A DNA stretch of 52,919 nt from Candidatus Eiseniibacteriota bacterium (GTDB lineage Bacteria; Eisenbacteria; RBG-16-71-46), in the NCBI GenBank assembly GCA_043720995.1, contig JAYSRO010000345.1, forward strand, positions 1 through 52,919. Reading direction: 5' to 3'. Of the stretch, positions 23,942-42,651 are shown piece after piece; the stretch's first letter is position 1; each line of letters opens with the position of its first letter. The notes under the pieces are model-generated. The model was not told where the DNA came from. It did not search any database and was given only the letters and a program-made list of their open reading frames with translations. The position numbers were made by a program, and so were the translations under genes.

Positions 23942-25591
23942 TTACGCCCTCGTCGTGATCGCCGCGGGTGCCGCGGCGGTGCTGGCCGCGGCCGGAGCTT
24001 CGCCGTCCGCGTACATGAGTTCGAAGTACTCGCGGACCATGCGGTCCGAGGAGAACTTGGAAACGCCCATTTGGATGCTGGCCTGCATCATTCGAACCCA
24101 GCGATCCCGGTCGCTCCAAGCAGGCATCACCTCGTTCTCGAACACCGAATACAGCGACTCGGCATCCTGCTCGTCATCGCCCGCCGTCTCGTCACCGATG
24201 GCCCAGCCGTTCACCCCGTGTTCGCAGCCCTCCGGCCACCAGCCGTCGAGAATGCTCACGTTGAGGGCGCCGTTCATAGCGGCCTTCATGCCCGAAGTGC
24301 CGCTCGCTTCGAGCGGCCGCACGGGATTGTTGAGCCACACGTCACAGCCGCGCACCATGTAGCGCGCGAGTTCCATGTCGTAGTTCTCGAGGAACAGCAC
24401 GCGCCCGGGGAATTGCGCCTGCGCCTTGACGATTCGGGCGATCACCTTCTGGCCGGCCTCGTCGGCAGCGTGCGCCTTGCCCGCGAACAGGATCACCAGC
24501 GGATGCTTGTTCATCAGGTTGGTCAACCGTTCCGGGTCACGCAACACCAGGTCACCGCGCTTGTAGGTGGCGGCGCGGCGCGCAAAGCCTACCACCAGCG
24601 CCGTGGGATCCACCGCCACTCCGTTGCGCTTCGCGACCTCTTCCAACAGTTCGGCCTTCAAGCGGGAGTGTGTTTCCCACAGCTTGCGCGGATCACTGGC
24701 GCTGTCGCGAACCGCTTGCGATTGCCACGTCCCCGGGTGCACGCCGTTCGTCACATGGATGATCGGCGCCGCGTTGCTGACCTGCTTCCACATGTCGCGC
24801 GCCGTCTCGCCGTGCAGCTTGGCGACCGCGTTCGCCTTGCGGGCGAGCCGCAGCCCCGCGACCGTCATGTTGAAGGGATCGCCGCCCAACGCGCGCATCT
24901 CACCGCCCGACAACTGCAGGCAGGCGCCCATGCGGCGCAGGTCCTTGAGCGAATGCTCTTCGTTGCCCGCTTCCACCGGCGTGTGCGTCGTGAACACGAT
25001 GCGCTTGCGCACCTCGGCCCACGCCTCGGGGAACGAGACATTGGTGCCTTCCATGCGCTCGGCGATCATCTCGACCCCGGCGAACACGGCGTGGCCTTCA
25101 TTGAAGTGATAGGTCGAAATCGGGATGCCCAACCAGTTGAGCGCTCGCACGCCGCCAATACCCAGCAGCATCTCCTGCGCGATGCGCGTGTCGGTGCCGG
25201 CTTCGTAGAGCCGTCGCGTGATCCAGCGGTCCTGCTCGCGGTAGGGCTCGATGAGGAACAGCGGCACGTGGCCGAAGCGGTCGGTCACCCACACCCGGCA
25301 GGGCACTTCCTGTCCGCGCACGCGGATGCGCACGCGCACACCCGTCTCGGTCAGGAACGAGGAATCGTAGGCGGGCCCTTCCTGATGGTACGGCATACCG
25401 TCGGCACCGATGCGCTGCGTGCCGTAGCCGTGTTCCCAGCGCAGGGTCACGGCGACCATGGGGAGCTTCAAGTCATGCGCGGACTTGATGAAATCGCCCG
25501 CGAGCACCCCCAGGCCACCGGCGTAGATCGGAAACGACTCGTTGAGCCCGAACTCCATGCAGAAGTAGGCGACATGCGGCTGCTGGGACAT
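23942..25591 (-). CDS. glgP: Alpha-glucan (glycogen/maltodextrin) phosphorylase, GT35, short alpha-glucan-family type
   Basis: VAYFCMEFGL...PIYAGGLGVLAGDFIKSA, FTTHTPVEAGNE, and EASGTSGMKAAMNG (PLP-lysine motif). ATG 25591 has GGAG 5 nt upstream. The track start 25615 is an alternative. Confidence 0.9.
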   Translation of the reverse strand: MSQQPHVAYFCMEFGLNESFPIYAGGLGVLAGDFIKSAHDLKLPMVAVTLRWEHGYGTQRIGADGMPYHQEGPAYDSSFLTETGVRVRIRVRGQEVPCRVWVTDRFGHVPLFLIEPYREQDRWITRRLYEAGTDTRIAQEMLLGIGGVRALNWLGIPISTYHFNEGHAVFAGVEMIAERMEGTNVSFPEAWAEVRKRIVFTTHTPVEAGNEEHSLKDLRRMGACLQLSGGEMRALGGDPFNMTVAGLRLARKANAVAKLHGETARDMWKQVSNAAPIIHVTNGVHPGTWQSQAVRDSASDPRKLWETHSRLKAELLEEVAKRNGVAVDPTALVVGFARRAATYKRGDLVLRDPERLTNLMNKHPLVILFAGKAHAADEAGQKVIARIVKAQAQFPGRVLFLENYDMELARYMVRGCDVWLNNPVRPLEASGTSGMKAAMNGALNVSILDGWWPEGCEHGVNGWAIGDETAGDDEQDAESLYSVFENEVMPAWSDRDRWVRMMQASIQMGVSKFSSDRMVREYFELMYADGEAPAAASTAAAPAAITTRA

Positions 25592-25850
25592 GGATGCTCC
25601 GGTTGTGAGGCTCACCGACTATGGGACCCGTTGTCAGGCTTGCGGTTGGATGAGGGCTGCGGATCATAAACGCCGCGGGCCGCGCGTGTCATGCGCGCGT
25701 CCAGCCCTCTGGGCTATCGGCAGTTGCGGCAGCGTTCTCCAGAGCATTGCGGGCGCGAGCGCGGAATAACCCCGACGAGCGCGGGTCCGCATGCTCCGCC
25801 TTTGCGCTGGCCGGACACTCAGGCGGATGCGCGTGCGTCATGCTTGTCCC

Positions 25851-30213: not shown

Positions 30214-30608
30214 CCGAGGGCTGATTCCATCCTCAGCAAGTCCGCGGCAGTTGTTCCCCTCTCAGCAGGTCAACCACGCGCAATCCGCCGATCACCCTGC
30301 GCAGCACCACGGGGCCGGGGTGGATCGCGGCATGGTGTACGCGCTCGCGTACATCCGTGGCGGCAGCGCCGGCGGGCGCGGCGTTCGCAGCCCGCTCGAC
30401 GGAGTGGCATGGACGATGGCCGTGCTACCGTGGGCGGGCTATCTGGATAGACTGCGGGGGCTGGCCCCCTAGAAGGCGTTGCGGCGCATGGCGCGCTGAA
30501 TTGCGCGAGTGCGACGGTCGGTGTGCTACCGAGGCGGCGGCCGACGGTGTATCTGATTGCGTTGAACTGTCGACTTTGAGTTGGCCGGGCTTCCAGATAC
30601 GAGGAGGT

Positions 30609-31691
30609 ATGATGCGACGTGAGGCGTGGGCAAGCATGGCTCTCTCGCTGCTGCTCTCGTTTGCGGCTCCCTGCGCGGCGCGGACGGCGTGGAAACCATC
30701 GCCGGGCCATACGCAAGTGCGGATATGGCCGAGTGCCGTCCCTGATGCGCAGCCGGTCGACAAGCCCGAGGTATCTGGGACGGTCGTGGACGCCGCGGGC
30801 AAGCCACGGCTCGTGGCCGGCAGTCCGTGGGTCTACGTCGACCGAGTCGCGCAACCGACGATGACCATCTATTCACCAAAGGGAAACAGCACGGGCGTTG
30901 CGGTGGTCGTGTTTCCTGGCGGAGGCTACAACGTTCTGGCGATCGACCTCGAAGGCACGGAAGTCTGTGACTGGCTGACGTCCAGGGGAATCACGTGCGT
31001 GCTGCTGAAGTATCGAGTGCCCTGTGTGAAGACGGGGCTATATCGCGATTGCCTAACGGCGTTGCAGGATGCGCAGAGGACGGTGGGGCTAGGAGCCTGT
31101 CCGAGTATTCGGCGGGGCGAGAAACCGACTTCCAAGGATGCCCTAGGAACGACGATCTCGAACCGCTGCGAGTAATTTGATGGCAGGAATGGGCGACTTT
31201 CGGAATACTCGGACAGGCTCCTAGTGCGCTTTCACGCCGCGAAGTGGCAGATCGATCCGCACAAGATCGGAGTGCTCGGCATGTCGGCGGGCGGGCACAT
31301 AGTCGCCGCCATGAGCACGCGTTTCAATCATCGTGTGTACCCGACCGTGGACGCGGCCGACAAGGAGAGCTGCCGGCCGGATTTCGCCATCGCCCTCTAT
31401 CCGGGCCATCTGGCGGTCCCGGCAAGTAACTTCGCGTTGAACCCCGATATTCGGGTCACAAGCCTGACGCCGCCGACGTTCCTGCTGCATGCGGAAGACG
31501 ATCCGGTAGATCCCGTGGAGAACTCGCTGGTCTACTATGCCGCGCTCAGGAAGGCTGGAGTTCCCGCGGAGATGCACGTGTACGTGAAAGGCGGGCACGC
31601 ATTTGGGCTGCGCCCCACGGAATCTCCCATCACGCGATGGCCTGCGCTTGTGGAGACTTGGCTTGGGACCATCGGGATTCTCACGAGGTAG
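30609..31691 (+). pseudogene. Alpha/beta-hydrolase (acetyl-esterase/lipase, Aes/BD-FAE-like) gene interrupted by a MITE-like insertion
   Basis: GAGGAGG precedes ATG 30609/30612. Signal MMRREAWASMALSLLLSFAAPCAA. VVVFPGGGY (oxyanion region) lies in ORF 30357..31175. GMSAGGH (GxSxG), HAEDDPV and GGHAF lie in ORF 31224..31691. Both ORFs share one frame and are separated by a 132-bp insert carrying an in-frame TAA (31173..31175). Confidence 0.8.
31093..31220. mobile_element. MITE-like non-autonomous element, 128 bp, with perfect 18-bp terminal inverted repeats and flanking CTAG (putative 4-bp target-site duplication)
   Basis: IRL gagcctgtccgagtattc (31093..31110) is the exact reverse complement of IRR gaatactcggacaggctc (31203..31220). 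CTAG sits at 31089..31092 and at 31221..31224. The element contains no ORF. Deleting 31093..31224 gives ...LQDAQRTVGLVRFHAAKWQIDPHKIGVLGMSAGGH... in frame. Confidence 0.82.
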
Positions 31692-32066: not shown

Positions 32067-32106
32067 CGAACGGGGCGCTCGATATCGCCATCGAGCGCCC
32101 CGTTCG
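32067..32106 (-). terminator. Candidate terminator hairpin downstream of the BoxB-like gene
   Basis: 17-bp stem cgaacggggcgctcgat / atcgagcgccccgttcg with the 6-nt loop atcgcc, 18 nt after the stop at 32124. On the minus strand it is followed by ttgttctc, which is only moderately U-rich. Confidence 0.5.
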
Positions 32107-32123: not shown

Positions 32124-33467
32124 TCAGTTCCTCAGCACCGCCACGGTATCGGTGCTGCCGTCGGCGTCTTCCATCACCCAGCGCACGCCCTTTGAACACG
32201 GGCAGGTACCGCCGACGCGCTTGAGCTTGGGGCTGCGCTTCACGGCTTCTTCGCGCGTCATCTCGCCCGCGGCCACCTTGGTGATCGCCTCGGCGTAATT
32301 GCGCATGTCGCGGCTGGCGACGTAGCCATCGTTCAAGCGCTTGGCGAGGTAGCGCAGGTATTCCTGCGGATCGGTGAAGACCTCTCCCTCGATGCCGACC
32401 ATCTCGAACGCGTGGACGCCCTTGCGGCGGAAGAACCGTTTGTCGGGCACACGCAGCAGCTCGTCGTGCGTGACGCCGCGGAAGCTGCCGCGCGACTGCT
32501 CGAGGGCAGCGAGCGCCTGTTCGGCCTGCTCGGCGTTCATCTCGGGGAAGCGCGCGCGAATGAATCGCGAATTGATATCGCGCACCATCTTGCGCAGCTC
32601 CTCGAAGTACATGTCGAGCGCGTCGATGTTCTTCATGTCCTTGAAACCGAACTTCACGTTGGTATCGCCGCCGCGTTCGTCGCCGAACATCTCGAGCCCG
32701 CGCGGCACCCATTTATTAAGCGAGTGCTGGATCATCTCCATCGACATCATCGGATCGCCCTGCGCCGCCTTCTGCGCCCAGCGGCGCATCGGCACGACGC
32801 CCGCGGCGAGATGGAAGGCCTCTTCGCGCAGCATCGGCGGCATCGAGTCGGCCATTGGCCGGTAGGCGCAGATCTTCTGCATCGTCAGCTGGTACTTGCC
32901 CACGCGGTCGATGACGGCGGCGAAGGTGATGTTGTCGATGAACGAGTCGTAGTCGAGGTTGAAGGCATCGAGCACATGGCTGCCGGTCTGCATCGACAGG
33001 ATCTCTTCGACCATCTGCTCGCCCGTCACACCGCCCGAAACGTGTGTCCAGTCCTCGGACAGCAAAAGGTGCAGCATCTGGTAACCGTGGCGAAGTTCTT
33101 CCGCCATCACGCGCAGCACCCAGTAGCGGTCCTGGTCGTCCGGGGCGCGCTCGAGTGTACCGGCGTGCTGCTGGATCGAGCCGAATTCCGTCGAGGCCTG
33201 CGCCTTGATGATGCCGAGCAGGTGCTTGGCCTGCTCTTCGGTCAGCTCATCCGGCTTGACGCGCTTTTTCTCGCCCTTGAAGTCACCGACCTGCACCGTG
33301 TCCGAAGTGCCGAGCTCCAGCTTAGCGCACAGGCAGAACTCTTCGTCGGTGGGAAAGTACTTCTGCCAGTTCTCGAGCAGCGTCGGGTAGTCCTTGAAAT
33401 TGTGACGCTGCCAGTGTTCGACGGCAGAATGGTATTTCTTCTCGAGTGTGACGTTCTCAACCTTCAT
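32124..33467 (-). CDS. BoxB/PaaA-family ferritin-like diiron oxygenase (orphan, benzoyl-CoA oxygenase component B-like)
   Basis: 447 aa. STEFGSIQQH ... AEELRHGYQMLHLL (ExxH) ... IDRVGKYQL ... LREEAFHLAAG (ExxH) parallels the Azoarcus BoxB ligand helices (TEPASVEQQRH / EEGRHLW / DRDGKFQL / TEEAHHLFVG) as I recall them. The composition is Lys/Glu/Phe/Tyr/Met-rich, unlike neighbouring genes. Confidence 0.85.
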   Translation of the reverse strand: MKVENVTLEKKYHSAVEHWQRHNFKDYPTLLENWQKYFPTDEEFCLCAKLELGTSDTVQVGDFKGEKKRVKPDELTEEQAKHLLGIIKAQASTEFGSIQQHAGTLERAPDDQDRYWVLRVMAEELRHGYQMLHLLLSEDWTHVSGGVTGEQMVEEILSMQTGSHVLDAFNLDYDSFIDNITFAAVIDRVGKYQLTMQKICAYRPMADSMPPMLREEAFHLAAGVVPMRRWAQKAAQGDPMMSMEMIQHSLNKWVPRGLEMFGDERGGDTNVKFGFKDMKNIDALDMYFEELRKMVRDINSRFIRARFPEMNAEQAEQALAALEQSRGSFRGVTHDELLRVPDKRFFRRKGVHAFEMVGIEGEVFTDPQEYLRYLAKRLNDGYVASRDMRNYAEAITKVAAGEMTREEAVKRSPKLKRVGGTCPCSKGVRWVMEDADGSTDTVAVLRN

Positions 33468-33482
33468 CGAATCGTGCCTCGG

Positions 33483-33935
33483 CTAAGTGAGCGTGATCTC
33501 GAGCGCCTGCAGCGCCGAGGGCGCGAATCCAAGCGCCTTCAAGAATCCAACGACACCGGTTTCCCTGCCATCCGCGAGTGTCCGCACGGCCGCCGCGCCT
33601 TCGGCGCGGAAGTGCAGCACGATCTCGTTGAACATCTGCTTGCCCAGGTCGCGGCCGCGATAATCGGGATCAATGCCGAACCGTTCGATCCAGCCGCTCG
33701 GCTTGTCGATGCCGAACTCACCGGCACGCACATCGCCGAGCATGAAGCCCACGACCTTGCCATCCACTTCCGCCACACGTGAGGCCTCGGGGTCGCGGCG
33801 GAGGTAGAACGCCACCCGCTGTTCCCAGAAATCCGGCCGGTACTGGCCGCCGATCTTCTCGTCGATCCGCACGATCGCATCGATGTCCAACTCGTCCAGC
33901 GGGCGGATGCGGACTTGATTCTGCACGTCGGGCAT
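33483..33935 (-). CDS. GNAT family N-acetyltransferase
   Basis: ATG 33935 with GAGGAA upstream. The acetyl-CoA motif region is FGIDPDYRGRDLGKQMFNEIV (Q/RxxGxG/A-like). The stop lies 15 nt upstream of the BoxB-like start, which has its own GAGG. Confidence 0.8.
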   Translation of the reverse strand: MPDVQNQVRIRPLDELDIDAIVRIDEKIGGQYRPDFWEQRVAFYLRRDPEASRVAEVDGKVVGFMLGDVRAGEFGIDKPSGWIERFGIDPDYRGRDLGKQMFNEIVLHFRAEGAAAVRTLADGRETGVVGFLKALGFAPSALQALEITLT

Positions 33936-34064
33936 AGGGGTTCCTCGTCGGTGGCCGACAGGTTGGATGTGCCGCAAGATTATCAGGTTCGGGCGCCGGG
34001 CGTGAACCCGCATGCCCCGTCATGGGTGTAACGCCCCGGCCTGAATGTGCCGATAAACTCGTGA

Positions 34065-36269
34065 ATGACACGCCCCCTTCCGGCAACGCCTGAACCTCCC
34101 CGCCCGGTCCCGACGGCCACTGCCACCCCGTGGCCCGTGGTCAGCAGTCGCCAGGCCGCGTGGATCGCTGTCGCATGGACCCTGGCACTCGTGGGGCTGT
34201 CCGTGTGTGGCCACCCCACGCCGTTCTACCGCGTCGAGACCGACCTCGTGGGGGAGTACCTTCCGGCGGCGCGTGAATTGGCGCGCGGCATCGTGTCGGG
34301 CTCGCACTACGCATTCAAGGGCCCCGGCTATCCGCTGATGCTGGCGTGGGCCGCGATCCCCTTCGGTGGCGATGTCGAACTCGTGGCCCGCGTGCTCGGA
34401 CCCGTCGCGGCCGGCTGCGCGGCGTGGTTCGCGTTTGCACTCGCGCGCGTCGCGATGGGTCCCGCCGTTGCCACGTTCACGCTGCTCGCCATGCTCGCCA
34501 TGCCGATCCAGTTTCGCTATGCCATCGAAGCCGGTACCGACGCGCCGGCGCTGGCGTTGATGTTGGCCTCGACGTGGCTCGTGCTGCGCAATGGCTCGGC
34601 GCGCAGCTTCGTGCTCGCGGGGCTGCTCGCGGGCTACGCGACACTCACGCGCGGCAACGCGGTGTTCCTGTTGCCCTGCGCCGCCCTCGCGATCGCCGCG
34701 CGGCCCGGGCGACTCGCGCGCTACGCAGCGTTTGGCTGTGCCGTCGCACTGCCATTGCTCGCGTGGCGTTGGATCGCGGAGCGCTCAGGCGGGCTGCCGG
34801 CGGATCGCAACTACCTGAACATCGCGTGGGAACTCTATGGCCACGGCGTGCCGTGGGACCGCTTCGAGACCACCACGGGCACGCGCTTTCACTCGCTGTT
34901 CGAAGTGTTGGCGTTTGATCCGCTACGCGCCTGCACTCACATCCTCCGCAATCTCGCCGCCTATCGCCTGCTCGACCTGCAGCAACTCCAGACGCCGTGG
35001 CTGGGAGTGCTCGCAGTGCCGGGGCTCGTGCGGCTTGCGGCCACGCGCACCGCGCGGCCCTGGCTGCTGCACGCGATCGCCTGCGCGGTATTGCTGGCGC
35101 CGGTGTTCTACAACGCACGTTTCGCGCTGTACCTGTTGCCGCTGTACCTCGCCGCCGCAGGCGCATCGCTGGAGTGGCTCGCGTTGCGCGTTCGCGCCTA
35201 CGCCATCACGCACCGCGTGCCGACGCGGTTGGCGCAGGCGATGATTCCCGGCGTTGTCGCGGCCATGATCGTGGGGCTGGCGGCGGGCGCCGTAGTCGTG
35301 TCCACGCGCGAACTCGCGGATGCTCCACATGAAGTGCGCCTCGCCGGAGCGGCGCTCGCGCGGTTCGCCGTACCCGGCGCGCGCATCATGGCGCGCAAGC
35401 CGCACGTCGCGTGGTACGCGCACATGCAGTACGTGCCCTATCCCACCTCGGCGTCGTTGGAAGACCTACCCGCGCTCGCGCGCGCGGCGGGCGCTGAGTA
35501 CTTGTTCTTCTCCGGCATCGAGCAGGTCATGCGCCCGAACGACGCCGTGCTCGCGGACTCGGGGCTCGCGCTACCCGGCTTCCAACAGGTGATGTGGTCC
35601 CGCTTGCCTCGCGGCCACTTCTACAGCGTGTACCGCTTGAGCAGCACGCACGCCACGCACGCGGAGTTCAGCGCAGCACTTCACGATGCGCTGTTGCGCT
35701 ACGAAGCGAAGCGGCCCGGCTCGCCCGAGGCGATGTTGTTCGTGGCCGCGGAGCTTTACGAGTTGGGCGCTGTCGCCGAAGCGCTCGCGCGGCTCGAGCG
35801 GCTCGAACGCAGCGGTGCGCATGACCCCGCGGTCGAGCGCTATCGCTCGCTGGCATTACTGGCAAGTGGTGATCTCGAGGGTGCTGCGCGCGCCTGCGAG
35901 CAGGCGATGGTGCTTGAAACACCGATGGCGTGGCACTACCAACAGCTCGGCGAAATCCGCGCGCGCCAGACTCGCATGGGCGAAGCGCGCGACGCGTTTG
36001 CGCGTGGCGTGGAGGTCGAGCCCACGAACCTCGCGTGCCTCGAATCGCTCGGCCGCGCTGAAATCGCGTTGCGCGACTTCCCCGCGGCTGCCGCCGCGTT
36101 CGAGCAGCGCCTGCGCCTGGTCCCGGGCGATATCGCGGCCCGCCGCGACGCCATGGGCGCCTGGAAATTGGCGGGTAACGAGGTGCGCGTGCGTCAGTTA
36201 TTCGCAGATGGCGTTTCCGGCGGCGCCTCTGCCGCGGCACTCGCCGGCACCACGACGCCGGCCCGCTAG
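34065..36269 (+). CDS. Polytopic membrane glycosyltransferase (GT39/ArnT/PMT_2-like) with C-terminal TPR repeats
   Basis: About 11 hydrophobic segments in the first roughly 430 aa, including a loop YAFKGPGYPLML typical of ArnT-like enzymes. The C-terminal roughly 200 aa have TPR-like A/L/E periodicity (AEALARLERLERSG..., GEARDAFARGVEVEPTN...). Confidence 0.7.
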   Translation: MTRPLPATPEPPRPVPTATATPWPVVSSRQAAWIAVAWTLALVGLSVCGHPTPFYRVETDLVGEYLPAARELARGIVSGSHYAFKGPGYPLMLAWAAIPFGGDVELVARVLGPVAAGCAAWFAFALARVAMGPAVATFTLLAMLAMPIQFRYAIEAGTDAPALALMLASTWLVLRNGSARSFVLAGLLAGYATLTRGNAVFLLPCAALAIAARPGRLARYAAFGCAVALPLLAWRWIAERSGGLPADRNYLNIAWELYGHGVPWDRFETTTGTRFHSLFEVLAFDPLRACTHILRNLAAYRLLDLQQLQTPWLGVLAVPGLVRLAATRTARPWLLHAIACAVLLAPVFYNARFALYLLPLYLAAAGASLEWLALRVRAYAITHRVPTRLAQAMIPGVVAAMIVGLAAGAVVVSTRELADAPHEVRLAGAALARFAVPGARIMARKPHVAWYAHMQYVPYPTSASLEDLPALARAAGAEYLFFSGIEQVMRPNDAVLADSGLALPGFQQVMWSRLPRGHFYSVYRLSSTHATHAEFSAALHDALLRYEAKRPGSPEAMLFVAAELYELGAVAEALARLERLERSGAHDPAVERYRSLALLASGDLEGAARACEQAMVLETPMAWHYQQLGEIRARQTRMGEARDAFARGVEVEPTNLACLESLGRAEIALRDFPAAAAAFEQRLRLVPGDIAARRDAMGAWKLAGNEVRVRQLFADGVSGGASAAALAGTTTPAR

Positions 36270-37200: not shown

Positions 37201-38586
37201 CTAGACCGGTACGCCCGGCGACCTTCGCAGCACTACTTCCACGGTCGTATCGGCGCGCGGCGTGATTGCATCGGGGCGCCAGCGCGCGGGGATCGTCTTC
37301 GGTTCTGCGCGGTTCCATTCGCGTGGGGTCGCCTCACCGGTCAGGGCGTCGGCGAAGTCGATGTCGACCGCCTCGCCCGCCATCTGCGGCTGCCCGTCCA
37401 TTGCATCGGCGGTGGGGAATGACCGCCGCGAACGCGAGCGATGGAACTTGAGCTGTCGTGCCAGCCAGCCGGTCATGCGCGGCCGCAGGTCGCCCAACAT
37501 GTTGAAGCAATCGTGGCCGCCGCGCGGGTAGTAGACGATCTCGCGATCGCACACCGCGTTGTCGTAGATGCGCCAGGCTTCTTCGCCCGGCGTGATCAGG
37601 TCGTGTCCGCCGCCAGAGACCATCAGCGGGCAGCGCAGGTGTGGCAGGGCGCGGTCGAGCGTGATGCGATGCACCTCGCGGCCCATCTCCGCTTCGGTCA
37701 GCCCATACAGCGCCGCCAACTCGCGGCGCATGCCGACGAGAGTGACGTTCCAGTAGACCTCGGCCGAATACGGCGGGCTCACCGCCGCGACCGCGCGGAT
37801 GCGCGAGTCGAACGACGCCATGCGGATGGCGAGATAGCCGCCGAGGCTCTGGCCGAAGAACGCAATGGCTTCCGGGTCGAGTTCGGGGCGAGTCTGGACT
37901 TCGTTGACGATGGCGAGACCAACAGGCCGCGGTTCCGCGACCATCGAGAGGCGATGGAACGTTTCGCCGAGACCGGGACCATCAAAGGTGATCGTGGCGA
38001 GGCCGCGCGCCAGCAGCGCGTCGGACCACCAGTGGAGTTCTTCCTTCACCGAGTTCGTGCCGTTGAACATCACCACCACCGGTGCCGGCTCAACGCCCGG
38101 CGGCACGCGCAGGTACCCGCGCAACATGCGACGGCGGAACGGCACCTCGAAGGGGCGCGCCGGAATGTCGAACAACGGAGCCGCGGTGGCGTAGGCGTTG
38201 ACGCAGGCTTCATGCAGCACGAGCTTGCGTTCGCGATCGAGGAACACGACGTACTGCGCGAAGTTGAACGACGCCGAGGCGCGCAGGAACAGGTCGCGCG
38301 CTTCGAGCGTGCGGCCGAACGACAGCGCGCGGCGGGCGAGCGCTTCCTGCTCGCGGCCCAGGTTGTCCCACTCGTCGACCCATGCTTCGAGGCTGGTGAT
38401 GCGGCCGAGCACGCGATCGAGATCCTGCGGGGTGACACCAAAGTTCAGGAACTGGAGCTTGGCCCACTTGGGCATCTGGCGCGCGGCGCCGAGCCGAAGG
38501 CTCCAGCGGACGAATTGCGGTCGCAGGACCTGGCTGCGCAGCAGGTGCGGCACGAGAAACTCGAGCCGCCCTCCTTTGACCGTCAT
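37201..38586 (-). CDS. Alpha/beta hydrolase, FrsA/DUF1100-like esterase
   Basis: VVVMFNGTNSVKEE, nucleophile elbow FGQSLGGYLA, GGGHDLITP and GGHDCFN. About 80-aa C-terminal extension of unknown function. Confidence 0.75.
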   Translation of the reverse strand: MTVKGGRLEFLVPHLLRSQVLRPQFVRWSLRLGAARQMPKWAKLQFLNFGVTPQDLDRVLGRITSLEAWVDEWDNLGREQEALARRALSFGRTLEARDLFLRASASFNFAQYVVFLDRERKLVLHEACVNAYATAAPLFDIPARPFEVPFRRRMLRGYLRVPPGVEPAPVVVMFNGTNSVKEELHWWSDALLARGLATITFDGPGLGETFHRLSMVAEPRPVGLAIVNEVQTRPELDPEAIAFFGQSLGGYLAIRMASFDSRIRAVAAVSPPYSAEVYWNVTLVGMRRELAALYGLTEAEMGREVHRITLDRALPHLRCPLMVSGGGHDLITPGEEAWRIYDNAVCDREIVYYPRGGHDCFNMLGDLRPRMTGWLARQLKFHRSRSRRSFPTADAMDGQPQMAGEAVDIDFADALTGEATPREWNRAEPKTIPARWRPDAITPRADTTVEVVLRRSPGVPV

Positions 38587-38911
38587 CGGGATGCCCCCGC
38601 CCTCACACTGGGCTGGTTACAGTGGCTGCGCGTGTCCGATCGCGCCATTCGCGAGCGGACAGGGTGTTCCTGCACCATGAACCAGCATGCAATGTGCCAC
38701 CGGCATTGCGCCCTGCCGTTCCATGGTTATCGCCGCATGCGGGCTCGTCTTGCAGGGAATTCAACGGATTGCGCGCGAGGGCCGCGGTTGGCCCCTCATT
38801 GGATGTCGCTGGCGCGCCTCGGGGACTGTGGAAATTCGCCCGACAGTCGTGCGGGATGACCCGCCGGTGCGGCGCGACCGAAGCGCCACGATCACCCCCG
38901 GCGATGCAGCG

Positions 38912-39784
38912 CTACTGCTTCGCCGCGATCGCCCCGGCCAGCACTTCGCGCACCTGCGCCGCGACCCCGCCGGTCTTGACCGCGCGACCGCCGACCGAGG
39001 TGATGCTCACGATGCCCTGCACGGCGTTGGTGAGGAACACCTCATCGGCGATCGCCAACTCGTCCCGCCACATGGCCGAAGTGCGCAGGCGGTAGCCGAG
39101 GTCGTAGCAGGCCTGGAGCGCGAAGGCGCGGGTGATGCCCGCGAGGATGCCGGTGTGATGCGACGGCGTGGCGATCTCGCCGTCGATATGGAGGAACACA
39201 TTGCTCGCCGAGCCCTCGAGCACTTCGCCCTGGTGCGTGAGCAGGATCGTCTCATCGGCGCCCGCGGCGCGCGCTTCTTCGTGCGCCAGGTGGTACGCCA
39301 GCCGGCTCGTCGTCTTGTACGCGCCCAGCACGCCGGGCGCGAACGGGCGCTTCGACAAGATCACCGAGCCCTCTCCCGTGCGCGTGCCGCGCCACAACCT
39401 GCCGCCCACTGGCTCCACTTCGACCCAGCAACCGGTGCGCGTCGGGCGCCCACCGGCGATGCCGCGCGTGACGGTGATGCGCGCGACGGCGTCGGTGAGC
39501 ACGTTGGCTTCGAGCGTGGCGTCGAGGGCAGTGCGCAGCGTGAGTGGCGAGGGCGGCACCGGGAAGCCGAGCTCTGCCGCGGCGAGCACCATGCGCTCGA
39601 GATGCTTCTGCCACAGGAACGGGTGGCCCTCGTGCACGCGGAACGTTTCGAAGATCGCACCGCCATCGTGCACGCCACGGTCGAACAGCGACACGCGCGC
39701 CGCTTCACCGCGCAATAGTTGCCCGTCTATCCACACCACACGATCCGGCGCCTTGGCGCCGCGGGCGAATCGCTCGGTGCTCAC
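38912..39784 (-). CDS. pabC: Aminodeoxychorismate lyase / class IV aminotransferase
   Basis: Fold-type IV pattern (RGVHDGGAIFETFRV, ITVTRG, YKTTSRL, EGSASNVF, GILAGITR). Its GTG start overlaps the pabB TGA (GTGA at 39781..39784). Confidence 0.78.
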   Translation of the reverse strand: MSTERFARGAKAPDRVVWIDGQLLRGEAARVSLFDRGVHDGGAIFETFRVHEGHPFLWQKHLERMVLAAAELGFPVPPSPLTLRTALDATLEANVLTDAVARITVTRGIAGGRPTRTGCWVEVEPVGGRLWRGTRTGEGSVILSKRPFAPGVLGAYKTTSRLAYHLAHEEARAAGADETILLTHQGEVLEGSASNVFLHIDGEIATPSHHTGILAGITRAFALQACYDLGYRLRTSAMWRDELAIADEVFLTNAVQGIVSITSVGGRAVKTGGVAAQVREVLAGAIAAKQ

Positions 39785-41235
39785 ACGACGTCTCGCAGCA
39801 GCGGCTCCCCGAGTCCCAACGCGCGGCCCAGCGCCGAACCCATACCGGCGATCTTCTGCAGCGTCTCTTCGTACTCAGCCGCGGGGTCCGAGTCCGCGGT
39901 AACCCCACCACCCGCCGAAAAGTGGATCGCCTGCGGCGTGACGAGTGCCGTGCGGATAGCGATGTTCCAGTCGGCGTCGCCGCTCCAATCGACGTAGCCG
40001 ATGCTGCCGGTATACATGTGGCGGCGCACCGGCTCGATCGCCTCGAGGATCTCGATGGCGCGCAGCTTGGGCGCGCCGGTAATCGAGCCGCCGGGGAAGC
40101 AGGCGTGCAGCAGGTCGAAGGCGTCGAGTTCACGCCGCAACCGCCCCTCGATCGTGGACGTCAGGTGGAACACCTGCGGGAATGCTTCCAGCTCGCACAG
40201 CCGCAGCGGTTGCACGCTGCCCGTCTCGCACACGCGGCCGAGATCATTGCGCAGCACATCGACGATCATGATGTTTTCGGCGCGGTCCTTCTCGCTGGCC
40301 AGCAACTCGGCGCGCAGCCGGGCATCGGCCGCGGCATCCTCGCCGCGCGGCCGCGTGCCCTTGATGGGGCGCGTCTCGACACGGAACGCGCGCAACTCGA
40401 GGAAGCGCTCGGGGCTCGCCGAGACGATGGCGTGATCGTCGCCGCCTAAGAACGCCGCGAACGGCGCGGGCGAACGTTCGTCGAGGGCCGCGTGCAAGCC
40501 GACCGCGGCATTCATCAACTGTGCAAAGCCGAGCGGCTCCGGTTGCAGCACGCCGTCGCGGCCGCCGATCGGCAGCGTCCAGCGCTGCGACAGGTTGGCC
40601 TGGTAGATGTCGCCGCGCGTGATGTGGTCCTGCACGCGGCGCACCGCGTCGAGGTAGGCCTCGCGCACGAACGTCGAACTCGCGACCGCGCGCGCTCCCG
40701 GCCGCAGCACGAGCGGCTCGAGGGCGGGGCGCTCCCACAGGTGCGTTTCAAATTCATGCAGCCGCTGCGCGGCGCGTTCGGCGCGCGCGGCGCCCTCGAA
40801 CGGCAAGCCGCTCGAGAACAGCCACGCTTGGCGCGAACGGTGATCGAAGGCGCCGACGACGTCGTACAGGCCCAGGGCAACGTCCGGCAGCCCGAGATCA
40901 TCTGCCGCGTGCGAAGGCCAGCGTTCGAGGCGGCGGCCGAAGTCGTAGCTCCAGCTGCCGACCGCGCCCCCGGTGAACGGCACGGCCGTCGCGTCGCTGC
41001 CCTCGGCGCGCATATGCTGCGACAGTTCGCGCCAACGGGCGATGGCGGTGTCGTACTGCGGGCCCGAGTAGAACTCGAACGGCTCGGCACCGAAGAACGA
41101 CCAGCGTCCCGCATCATCGTTCAGGCTCGAATGCAGCAGGAACGGGTGCCGCAGGCGCGCGAGCGCCGGCAGCAGGTCGAGCGGATCGAAACACTCGATC
41201 GCCCGCACCAGCGGGAAGGATGACCTGGCAGTCAT
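39781..41235 (-). CDS. pabB: Aminodeoxychorismate synthase component I (chorismate-binding enzyme)
   Basis: ATG 41235 (MTARSSFPLV...). Chorismate-binding C-terminal motifs SPERFLEL, ETRPIKGTRPRG, KDRAENIMIVDVLRNDLGRV, GGSITGAPK and GSIGY. The upstream 164 codons of the track ORF are Arg-rich noise. Confidence 0.85.
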   Translation of the reverse strand: MTARSSFPLVRAIECFDPLDLLPALARLRHPFLLHSSLNDDAGRWSFFGAEPFEFYSGPQYDTAIARWRELSQHMRAEGSDATAVPFTGGAVGSWSYDFGRRLERWPSHAADDLGLPDVALGLYDVVGAFDHRSRQAWLFSSGLPFEGAARAERAAQRLHEFETHLWERPALEPLVLRPGARAVASSTFVREAYLDAVRRVQDHITRGDIYQANLSQRWTLPIGGRDGVLQPEPLGFAQLMNAAVGLHAALDERSPAPFAAFLGGDDHAIVSASPERFLELRAFRVETRPIKGTRPRGEDAAADARLRAELLASEKDRAENIMIVDVLRNDLGRVCETGSVQPLRLCELEAFPQVFHLTSTIEGRLRRELDAFDLLHACFPGGSITGAPKLRAIEILEAIEPVRRHMYTGSIGYVDWSGDADWNIAIRTALVTPQAIHFSAGGGVTADSDPAAEYEETLQKIAGMGSALGRALGLGEPLLRDVV

Positions 41236-41295
41236 GCCATGGAGCCTAGGAGCCGGATGCGACCGGGTCAATGGTGTTAGACTCCCCCGTTCCCA

Positions 41296-42651
41296 ATGAT
41301 CACGACCCTCATCAAATCCGGCACCCTCGTGTGCATGGACGCCGCCGGCACGCTCTCCCGTGGCGATCTGCTCGTCCAGGACGGTGTTATCGCCGCGGTG
41401 GGCGACGCCGTGCCCGCGGCCCTGGCGGGTCTGCCGGGCCAGCACCCCGACGAGACGATCGACGCCACCGGCCGCTTCGTGCTGCCCGGCTTCGTCCATG
41501 GCCACCTGCACCTGTGCCAGACGCTGTTCCGCGGGCTCGCCGAGCAGGCCGACCTGCTGCGCTGGCTGCGCGAGAGCATCTGGCCGCTCGAGGCGGCGCA
41601 CACCGAAGCCTCGATCGCCGCCTCGGCGCGCCTCGGCGTGTGCGAACTGCTGGCGGGCGGCGTCACATGCATTAACGACATGGGCACCGTGCACCTGACC
41701 GAGGCGACCGCGAGCGTGCTGGAGCAATCGGGGATCCGCGCCCTGTTGGGCAAGGCACTGATGGATCAGGGCGTGCAGGTGCCGCCGCGGTTGATGGAGA
41801 CCTCACGCGCAGCGATGGACGGCGCCTTGGCGTTGGCCGACCGCTTCCATGGTGCCGCCGCGGGGCGCATTCGCATTTCGCTGGCGCCCCGCTTCATCCT
41901 GTCGTGCAGCGAGGCGCTGTGGCGTGATGTCACCGACGCTTCGCGCGAGCGCGGCATGCTCGTGCACACACACCTCGCCGAGAGCCCCAACGAAGGCCGC
42001 GAGGTCGAGCAGGCTGTGGGCAGCACCGCCACGCGCTACTTTGCCGCGCAAAGCGCGTTGAGTGAGCGGTTCGTCGGCGCGCATGGTGTTTGGCTCGCGC
42101 CCGACGAACTCGCCTCGCTCAAAGTCGCGAACGCCGCACTCGTCCATTGCCCGGGCTCGAACCTCAAACTCGGCTCGGGGCTCGCGAACGTGCGCGCCTG
42201 GCATCGCGCCGGCGTGCGCTGCGGTTTAGGCTCCGATGGCGCGGCGTGCAACAACCGGCTCGACACGTTTGCTGAGATGTCGCTGGCTGCGGGCATCTCG
42301 CGCGTGCTGGAACCTCTCGATGCGCTGACGCCGCGAGAAGTCGTGGCGCTGGCGACATCGCGCGGCGCGGAGGCGCTGGGATTGGGTGCGGTCACGGGCT
42401 CGCTCGAAGCCGGCAAGCAGGCTGACATCGTGGTGCTCGACGCCACCGCACCCGAGCTCGCGCCAAACGAGCATGTCGACCCTTACACCACGATCGTGCA
42501 CGCCATGACGCCCGCCCACGTGCGGCTCACCATGGTCGCGGGCCGCGTGCTGTACCGCGATGGCGCCTGGTCCACGCTGGACCCCGACCGCGCCGCGGCG
42601 GATGGACGGGCGGAAGCGCGCGGATTGGTGAAGCGGGTAGCGCAGGCGTAG
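41296..42651 (+). CDS. Amidohydrolase, MtaD/TRZ-ATZ family (5-methylthioadenosine/S-adenosylhomocysteine deaminase-like)
   Basis: LPGFVHGHLHLCQT (HxH metal site), VHTHLAES, GVWL, HCPGSNLKLGSG and LGSDGAA. It diverges from pabB with a 60-bp spacer. Confidence 0.83.
   Translation: MITTLIKSGTLVCMDAAGTLSRGDLLVQDGVIAAVGDAVPAALAGLPGQHPDETIDATGRFVLPGFVHGHLHLCQTLFRGLAEQADLLRWLRESIWPLEAAHTEASIAASARLGVCELLAGGVTCINDMGTVHLTEATASVLEQSGIRALLGKALMDQGVQVPPRLMETSRAAMDGALALADRFHGAAAGRIRISLAPRFILSCSEALWRDVTDASRERGMLVHTHLAESPNEGREVEQAVGSTATRYFAAQSALSERFVGAHGVWLAPDELASLKVANAALVHCPGSNLKLGSGLANVRAWHRAGVRCGLGSDGAACNNRLDTFAEMSLAAGISRVLEPLDALTPREVVALATSRGAEALGLGAVTGSLEAGKQADIVVLDATAPELAPNEHVDPYTTIVHAMTPAHVRLTMVAGRVLYRDGAWSTLDPDRAAADGRAEARGLVKRVAQA

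Follow-up and report, generated by a model that had tools for sequence, protein, structure and literature searches.

A GNAT gene and a BoxB-type diiron oxygenase gene form a conserved pair in three families of Candidatus Eiseniibacteriota

Introduction

BoxB of Azoarcus evansii (PDB 3PER, 3PF7, 3PM5 and 3Q1G; equivalog model TIGR03225) is the oxygenase component of benzoyl-coenzyme A (CoA) 2,3-epoxidase and acts at a diiron centre. According to PMC5489048, its iron ligands are Glu120, Glu150, His153, Asp211, Glu240 and His243, Gln116 hydrogen-bonds the benzoyl-CoA substrate, and the benzoyl group is oriented by Thr119, Ser123, Phe193, Phe203/206 and Thr210. The product of BoxB inhibits the enzyme, which depends on BoxC to overcome this, as stated in PMC4498308. 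Two further solved structures are related to it: PaaA, the catalytic subunit of the E. coli phenylacetyl-CoA 1,2-epoxidase PaaABCE (PDB 3PW1, 3PVR and others), and SSO1313 of Sulfolobus solfataricus (4MUD), a protein of 235 amino acids (aa) that consists of the core bundle only, and whose structural-genomics entry is titled 'ring oxidation complex / phenylacetic acid degradation-like protein'. The present work concerns a relative of these proteins encoded on contig JAYSRO010000345.1 of a Candidatus Eiseniibacteriota bacterium. This whole stretch of 52,919 nucleotides (nt) is called the window below, and all coordinates refer to it. On its minus strand lie a gene for a 447-aa diiron oxygenase of BoxB architecture (32124..33467) and, just 5′ of it, a gene for a 150-aa GNAT acetyltransferase (33483..33935). 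A first-pass annotation, made from the letters of the window alone, had pointed to them as an orphan BoxB/PaaA-family oxygenase tightly coupled to a GNAT.

On the acetyltransferase side, the described proteins that come closest are GNATs of the YpeA and PA4534 type and the N-terminal acetyltransferases RimI and ARD1. They are like the window's GNAT in size and fold family, but its matches to them lie far below any equivalog cut-off.

Results

The oxygenase belongs to a sister family of BoxB

BoxB is the closest known enzyme to the oxygenase. The protein passed the Pfam PaaA_PaaC model (PF05138) with 36.9 bits, for a gathering threshold of 28.5 (E 3.1e-9, residues 72-310). It failed both equivalog models, with 51.6 bits against the 499.1 required for BoxB (TIGR03225), and 37.5 bits against the 280 required for PaaA (TIGR02156). 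An AlphaFold model, built on 44 sequences, had a predicted local distance difference test (pLDDT) score of 90.7, with residues 414-447 below 50. When this model was submitted to Foldseek, the first ten matches were all BoxB chains (E about 2e-12). Using VIA-align, model residues 2-385 were superposed on residues 9-434 of BoxB (3q1g), with a Z score of 32.1 and a root-mean-square deviation (rmsd) of 2.6 Å for 344 of the 447 residues, at 22% identity. The values were Z 23.3 and rmsd 1.9 Å for SSO1313 (4MUD), and Z 22.9 for PaaA. At the level of sequence, SSO1313 was the best match among solved structures (E 1.4e-16, and 1.1e-18 with a profile); it corresponds to model residues 58-345.

Since the model superposes over residues 2-385, the N-terminal part of BoxB and most of its C-terminal part are present in the oxygenase. 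The whole-chain architecture is thus shared with BoxB, including an N-terminal extension that PaaA lacks. The first-pass annotation had held that the C-terminal 140 aa or so were unlike BoxB. This was not supported, as the profile alignment to BoxB reaches residue 369 and the superposition residue 385; only the last ~60 aa (residues 386-447 in the superposition), which carry a CPC motif, have no counterpart in BoxB. PaaA shares with the oxygenase the PF05138 family, the core bundle and the ligand pattern E, ExxH, D, ExxH, as given in PMC4498308, but the oxygenase is about 140 aa longer and has the terminal domains of the BoxB type. Its identity with one true BoxB of the same phylum is 29% over 228 aa.

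The substrate and metal sites were then mapped through an ungapped HMMER alignment to 3PER. BoxB ligands E120, E150, H153, D211, E240 and H243 align with E94, E124, H127, D187, E216 and H219 of the oxygenase, all six being identical. They lie in the motifs STEFGSIQQH (E94), AEELRH (E124, H127), IDRVGKYQ (D187) and REEAFH (E216, H219), which are the two ExxH helices and the upstream acidic ligand candidates already picked out in the first pass. Among the substrate-orienting residues, Q90, T93, S97, F169 and F182 are kept (Q116, T119, S123, F193 and F206 in BoxB), but N179 replaces F203 and I186 replaces T210. Conservation was read from an alignment of 116 sequences, comprising 39 orthologues from the phylum and 77 homologues from other phyla (of the 80 loci, 3 that were short or partial were left out). 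No variation was seen in the 116 sequences at the six ligands or at Q90, T93, S97 and F169, and position 182 is either F or Y. This conservation points to an active enzyme; the pocket would be BoxB-like and would accommodate a hydrophobic group linked as a thioester.

We conclude that the oxygenase is a real BoxB-type diiron protein, neither BoxB nor PaaA, and a member of an uncharacterised sister family of BoxB. The proposed membership in the BoxB/PaaA diiron superfamily is borne out by the Pfam score, the fold and all six ligands, and the score against TIGR03225 sets the protein apart from genuine BoxB. Sources name its homologues 'benzoyl-CoA 2,3-epoxidase subunit B', 'phenylacetyl-CoA epoxidase catalytic subunit' or 'PaaI', and a look-up of homologue P0121 in the ESM Atlas returned only clusters named BoxB or PaaA. 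For this family, the BoxB, PaaA and PaaI labels are probably wrong.

The pair is inherited as a unit in three families

Sources give close homologues the label Candidatus Eisenbacteria or Eiseniibacteriota, and 206 genomes of the phylum were searched. The oxygenase had matches in 130 of them at E<=1e-20. Orthologues with 58-98% identity were found in 121 genomes, the window's included (family f1, 74/88; f2, 8/10; f18, 38/41), while 9 genomes of other families contained only genes with 28-36% identity, about 380 aa long. The GNAT was found at E<=1e-25, with 51-94% identity, in 120 genomes (f1, 74/88; f2, 8/10; f18, 37/41) and in none elsewhere. The unpublished genome G073 is included in both sets of counts.

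All 121 GNAT matches, in 120 genomes, were on the same contig and strand as the oxygenase and directly 5′ of it, the distance between the ends of the two matches having a median of 26 nt and a maximum of 236 nt. The coupling first noticed in the window is therefore seen at every GNAT match. A single genome, G192, had an oxygenase and no GNAT, and its oxygenase is cut by the contig end. In genus g17, both genes were absent from all 8 genomes. The GNAT stop and the oxygenase start were compared in 42 genomes: 14 have an overlap of 4 nt and 2 an overlap of 1 nt, while 25 have a separation of 2-25 nt and one a separation of 230 nt. As kin have their gene order in common through descent, all such counts overstate the number of independent observations. 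We conclude that the three families carry the GNAT-oxygenase pair as a core feature, inherited vertically, and that the label 'orphan' is misleading.

The 230-nt spacer belongs to genome G131 (locus L010, G131:C356, about 1265-1500), the closest relative, whose oxygenase is 98% identical to that of the window. Comparison of this spacer with the window gave no similarity. A decayed second pair was seen in another genome (G096:C15:27148-28853), in which a partial GNAT (61% identity, residues 20-123) is followed by oxygenase fragments, one of them with an in-frame TGA. This arrangement suggests that both genes were duplicated together and that the copy was later lost.

No Box or Paa partner was found over cut-off

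The genome from which the window comes (3.7 Mb in 578 contigs, 75.8% complete) contains a single PF05138 gene. The best matches in it were 87.2 bits for BoxC (cut-off 712.3), 23.9 bits for BoxA (cut-off 459.2) and 184.3 bits for benzoate-CoA ligase (cut-off 375.25). PaaB gave no match, and no PaaC was found, the only PF05138 gene being the oxygenase itself; PaaE was not searched for. Closer to the pair, partner genes were absent among the open reading frames (ORFs) tested, which span about 21.7 kb to 42.7 kb of the window. This agrees with the first-pass annotation, which had seen no BoxA, BoxC or Paa partner and no CoA ligase nearby; it had also named boxA, boxC and benzoate-CoA ligase genes elsewhere in the genome as what would speak for a genuine BoxB, and none of these exceeds its cut-off in this 75.8% complete assembly. 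The oxygenase thus differs from BoxB by its coupling to a GNAT with no BoxA or BoxC over cut-off in the genome, and from PaaA by the lack of a PaaB match and of a second, PaaC-like gene. As the genome holds one PF05138 gene, the oxygenase may act as a single subunit, without a PaaC-like partner.

True BoxB (661-798 bits) was present in 15 of the 206 genomes of the phylum, 9/13 in family f4 and 6/8 in f13, and all 15 were devoid of an oxygenase orthologue. BoxC matched in the same 15 genomes at E<=1e-60, exceeding its cut-off in 12, and boxB adjoins boxC where coordinates were compared. Examples of the two genes side by side are G054:C197:3809-6846 and G047:C8:124294-127344, in f4 and f13, where the GNAT-oxygenase pair is absent. 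Among the 139 genomes of f1, f2 and f18, none had BoxB or BoxC at the thresholds used (E<=1e-60 for BoxC), and none had BoxA at E<=1e-40. BoxA exceeded its cut-off in none of the 206 genomes, which suggests that the reductase serving BoxB in f4 and f13 may be unusual. Identity of the oxygenase with genuine BoxB or PaaA was rejected on scores and distribution.

The GNAT protein

The GNAT scored 46.9 bits with Pfam PF00583 (Acetyltransf_1, cut-off 20.7). Its top NCBIfam match reached 37.9 bits for a cut-off of 124, so that no equivalog assignment could be made. It has the loop RGRDLG, and members of family f2 have RGKGIG or RGKGIA at this place, which we take to be the acetyl-CoA pyrophosphate-binding loop of GNATs, going by its canonical form. 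With a profile of 21 orthologues, the nearest solved relatives were YpeA (36.3 bits), PA4534, an archaeal ARD1, RimI and Naa30, all between 23 and 36 bits.

Operon layout

All the features of the pair are on the minus strand. The GNAT gene (33483..33935) runs from an ATG at 33935 to a TAG at 33483-33485, and the oxygenase gene (32124..33467) from an ATG at 33467 to a TGA at 32124-32126. The 15-nt spacer between them (33468..33482), as read from the sequence, contains a GAGG at 33477-33480. These coordinates confirm the earlier description of a 150-aa GNAT ending 15 nt before a 447-aa gene with its own GAGG. The GNAT start at 33935 was preferred over an upstream ATG at 34013 because the N-terminus MPxV is common to 16 of 20 aligned orthologues; of the 4 others, all fragments, one begins upstream and three downstream.

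The hairpin reported 3′ of the pair was also found again: a terminator-like structure at 32067..32106 has a 17-bp Watson-Crick stem followed by TTGTTCTC. The 76 nt after the oxygenase stop, which include it, have a folding energy of -48.7 kcal/mol (z = -6.4), and none of 200 shuffled sequences was as stable. At the other end, a consensus scan gave a promoter-like site 5′ of the GNAT gene at 33979..34006 (TTCACG, 16 nt, GATAAT), which is weak evidence, with one site found for 0.5 expected in shuffles. The next gene 5′ of the pair (34065-36269) is on the opposite strand, and the pair therefore needs a promoter of its own. Taken with the hairpin, this looks like a self-contained two-gene operon.

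The lower GC content remarked upon in the first pass is real (0.59-0.64 in the region, versus 0.66-0.72 in the neighbours), but it is no mark of a foreign gene. At the three codon positions, the region has GC contents of 0.63, 0.37 and 0.86, and GC3 in the neighbours is 0.77-0.89, i.e. equal. With positions 1 and 2 low and GC3 equal to that of the neighbours, the lower GC is an effect of amino-acid composition. Horizontal transfer as the source of the low GC was rejected on the same GC3 value. The DNA of the stretch is present in sediment and freshwater metagenomes; no RNA data set was listed for it.

Homologues in other phyla and cysteines specific to the clade

Of 1.84 billion cluster representatives searched exhaustively, only 421 matched at E<=0.001, and many of these were fragments. 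When one genome per species was scanned, 487 encoding stretches were obtained, of which 80 loci were kept as the sample of other phyla. Judging by record titles, they come from Acidobacteriota (Blastocatellia, Thermoanaerobaculia), Zixibacteria, Planctomycetota, Myxococcota and others. Seventy-five of these loci encode proteins with 38-44% identity to the window protein over residues ~5-395, and five (L059-L063, mostly labelled Zixibacteria) with 29-36%; the median length is 411 aa. In a quick maximum-likelihood tree of 120 rows, from which rows over 520 aa were left out, 38 orthologues of the phylum formed one group (SH-aLRT 98).

Clustering of the ORFs around the 80 loci showed no conserved neighbour in more than 28 of them. 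The commonest neighbours, identified from example translations only, are HD-GYP/GAF-like, AlaX-like, MFS transporter and haem genes, and they look like lineage synteny. Longer homologues were searched for fusions, which was uninformative: two proteins were found, an 800-aa amidohydrolase-PaaA-like one, encoded on just one contig of 4.9 kb, and a 1,675-aa RHS-type one. A literature search that left out most subscription journals, and is for that reason weak evidence of absence, found no description of the oxygenase family or of the GNAT pairing.

In the alignment of 116 sequences, the phylum orthologues are set apart by two CxC motifs. The codons of C45-L46-C47, near the N-terminus, are at 33327..33335, and those of C422-P423-C424, in the clade-specific tail, at 32196..32204, both on the minus strand. 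The four cysteines C45, C47, C422 and C424 are invariant in 39/39 phylum orthologues. C45 and C47 are absent from 77/77 homologues of other phyla, and a cysteine is found at each of the C422 and C424 columns in only 1/77. The GNAT partnership, the C-terminal tail and the four cysteines therefore map to the same branch. The four clade-specific cysteines probably form a metal site that arose together with the GNAT partnership. In a second model of the oxygenase, based on 130 orthologues, residues 415-447 still had a pLDDT below 50.

Genes around the pair

In family f1, PabB-like (chorismate-binding), PabC-like (aminotransferase IV), FrsA-like and phosphorylase-like genes occur near the pair in 8/8 loci, at varying distance, their Pfam identities having been established on the window's copies only. 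In the window (37201-41727 and 23942-25615) and in loci L048-L054, the PabB-, PabC- and FrsA-like genes are upstream of the pair and the phosphorylase-like gene is downstream. At locus L050, the upstream block adjoins the pair directly on one strand, and the phosphorylase-like gene follows at some distance downstream, also on that strand. The window has a degenerate GGDEF gene and a PMT_2/TPR gene as insertions on the opposite strand. The flanks of nine f2 and f18 loci contain OmpA-like, EamA, HerA-like, DUF5916 or crotonase genes instead, and the f1 arrangement is accordingly read as family-level synteny.

Both f2 loci examined (L042 and L043) have an enoyl-CoA hydratase gene of 278-308 aa divergently upstream of the GNAT; this could point to CoA-ester chemistry or be synteny due to chance. 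Convergent to the oxygenase in the window is an alpha/beta-hydrolase (esterase) gene (30357-31691), split into 30357-31175 and 31224-31691. A distant PaaA_PaaC protein of about 375 aa, with 28-30% identity, is encoded in other families of the phylum at L055, L056 and L058 (genomes G039, G037 and G036). There, a TetR gene lies directly upstream (L056, L058), and aldehyde dehydrogenase (L055, L058) and enoyl-CoA hydratase (L055) genes are found. Such neighbours are more reminiscent of a catabolic acyl-CoA cluster.

Discussion

The GNAT-oxygenase pair belongs to no known pathway. For its function, the reading to which we give about an even chance has the oxygenase acting on an acyl-CoA with the help of O2 and the GNAT serving as a coupled, CoA-dependent acyltransferase, in an operon with its own promoter and terminator. 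The oxygenase, translationally coupled to the GNAT, would activate O2 at its diiron centre and would epoxidise or hydroxylate a CoA thioester on its acyl group, which would be hydrophobic and probably aromatic, an activity predicted from the fold and the conserved pocket residues. Electrons would presumably be supplied by a general ferredoxin or reductase. The GNAT would carry out the coupled CoA-dependent step: most likely, it would take the oxidised acyl-CoA and transfer the acyl group to an amine. Because product inhibition of BoxB is relieved by BoxC, the GNAT could, by analogy, have a similar product-removing role. Alternatively, it might acetylate the product, or the oxygenase itself. 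The small-molecule modification module suggested in the first pass is likewise a proposal.

Several observations weigh against this acyl-CoA oxygenase and acyltransferase scheme. Of the seven positions that orient the substrate in BoxB, two are changed (N179 for F203 and I186 for T210). In the f1, f2 and f18 loci examined, none of the genes linked to the pair is for a CoA ligase, a reductase or the formation of an acceptor. The tail that bears two of the cysteines is modelled without confidence, with pLDDT below 50 in both models. Outside the phylum, tblastn detected no GNAT orthologue within 6 kb of the homologues (0/80 loci), and a GNAT profile run on 2,851 ORFs of these loci gave no match, for 17/17 in control loci. 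These homologues keep the same active site, so that the GNAT is not needed for the core chemistry and is an add-on to it. Finally, the solved relatives of the GNAT are either poorly characterised or protein N-terminal acetyltransferases, and a regulatory role fits equally well.

This last point leads to an unlikely candidate, namely that the GNAT is a protein acetyltransferase of the RimI, ARD1 or YpeA kind, acting on the oxygenase or on another protein, the linkage being regulatory or maturational. Besides the YpeA, PA4534, ARD1, RimI and Naa30 matches and the existence of the core enzyme without a GNAT in other phyla, the conserved N-terminus of the oxygenase speaks for it, K2 and V3 being present in at least 90% of 130 sequences. 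However, the structural matches, at 23-36 bits, are all weak and hardly informative on the acceptor, and the overlapping start and stop codons in 16/42 genomes suggest equimolar synthesis, which would be expected of partners in a complex or pathway rather than of an enzyme and the protein that modifies it. The four invariant cysteines, CxC...CxC beside a diiron four-helix bundle, bring another family to mind. Rubrerythrins have a diiron site plus FeCys4. The oxygenase might accordingly be a rubrerythrin- or ferritin-like redox or iron-handling protein with a Cys4 centre, for instance a peroxidase or an oxygen scavenger, with which the absence of linked substrate-pathway genes would agree. We consider this improbable: the other-phyla homologues keep the active site without the cysteines, the substrate-contact residues Q90, T93, S97, F169 and F/Y182 are conserved family-wide, and the whole-chain match is BoxB (Z 32), with no rubrerythrin chain among the 50 matches listed by VIA-align.

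It is very improbable that the adjacency of the two genes is inherited synteny devoid of a functional link. Descent makes kin share gene order and inflates the counts, but every other neighbour changes between f1, f2 and f18, and the spacing of the pair is near zero in 41/42 genomes. The genes are also present together (120/121) or absent together (8/8 in g17), and the pseudogenised duplicate of G096 holds both. To the proposal that the oxygenase is a genuine benzoyl-CoA or phenylacetyl-CoA epoxidase, with partners encoded elsewhere or unassembled, we give hardly any credence. The source labels of the homologues, the BoxB-like fold and active-site residues and the 75.8% completeness of the window's genome are what it can draw on. 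Against it stand the 51.6 bits obtained for 499.1 required, the 29% identity with true BoxB of the same phylum, the absence of BoxB and BoxC, at the thresholds used, from all 139 genomes of f1, f2 and f18, many of which are more than 95% complete, the lack of an oxygenase orthologue in all 15 true-BoxB genomes, and the failure of BoxA to exceed its cut-off in any of the 206 genomes.

A more specific form of the preferred scheme, rather unlikely as a whole, takes the cysteines into account. An ancestral stand-alone BoxB-like oxygenase would have gained the GNAT and the CxC...CxC centre on one branch, giving a self-contained complex in which an acyl- or aryl-CoA is oxidised and its acyl group, now reactive, is passed directly to an amine. 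In such a complex, the four-cysteine centre could be a rubredoxin-like iron site feeding the diiron centre and replacing BoxA, or else a zinc clasp on which the GNAT docks. If this were true, these bacteria would make an N-acyl metabolite or modification that is specific to them.

The practical consequence concerns annotation. The automatic annotation of the oxygenase as an aromatic-degradation gene is probably a mislabel, and genome surveys that count Box and Paa genes as markers of aromatic degradation would overcount in these lineages, where the label is unsafe. With its strictly paired GNAT and the cysteines particular to the clade, the oxygenase offers a concrete, testable two-protein system. 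More broadly, three families of an uncultured phylum have as a core gene a member of an unstudied sister family of BoxB whose active site is fully conserved, and current metabolic maps lack a conserved, presumably O2-dependent reaction of these soil and sediment bacteria.

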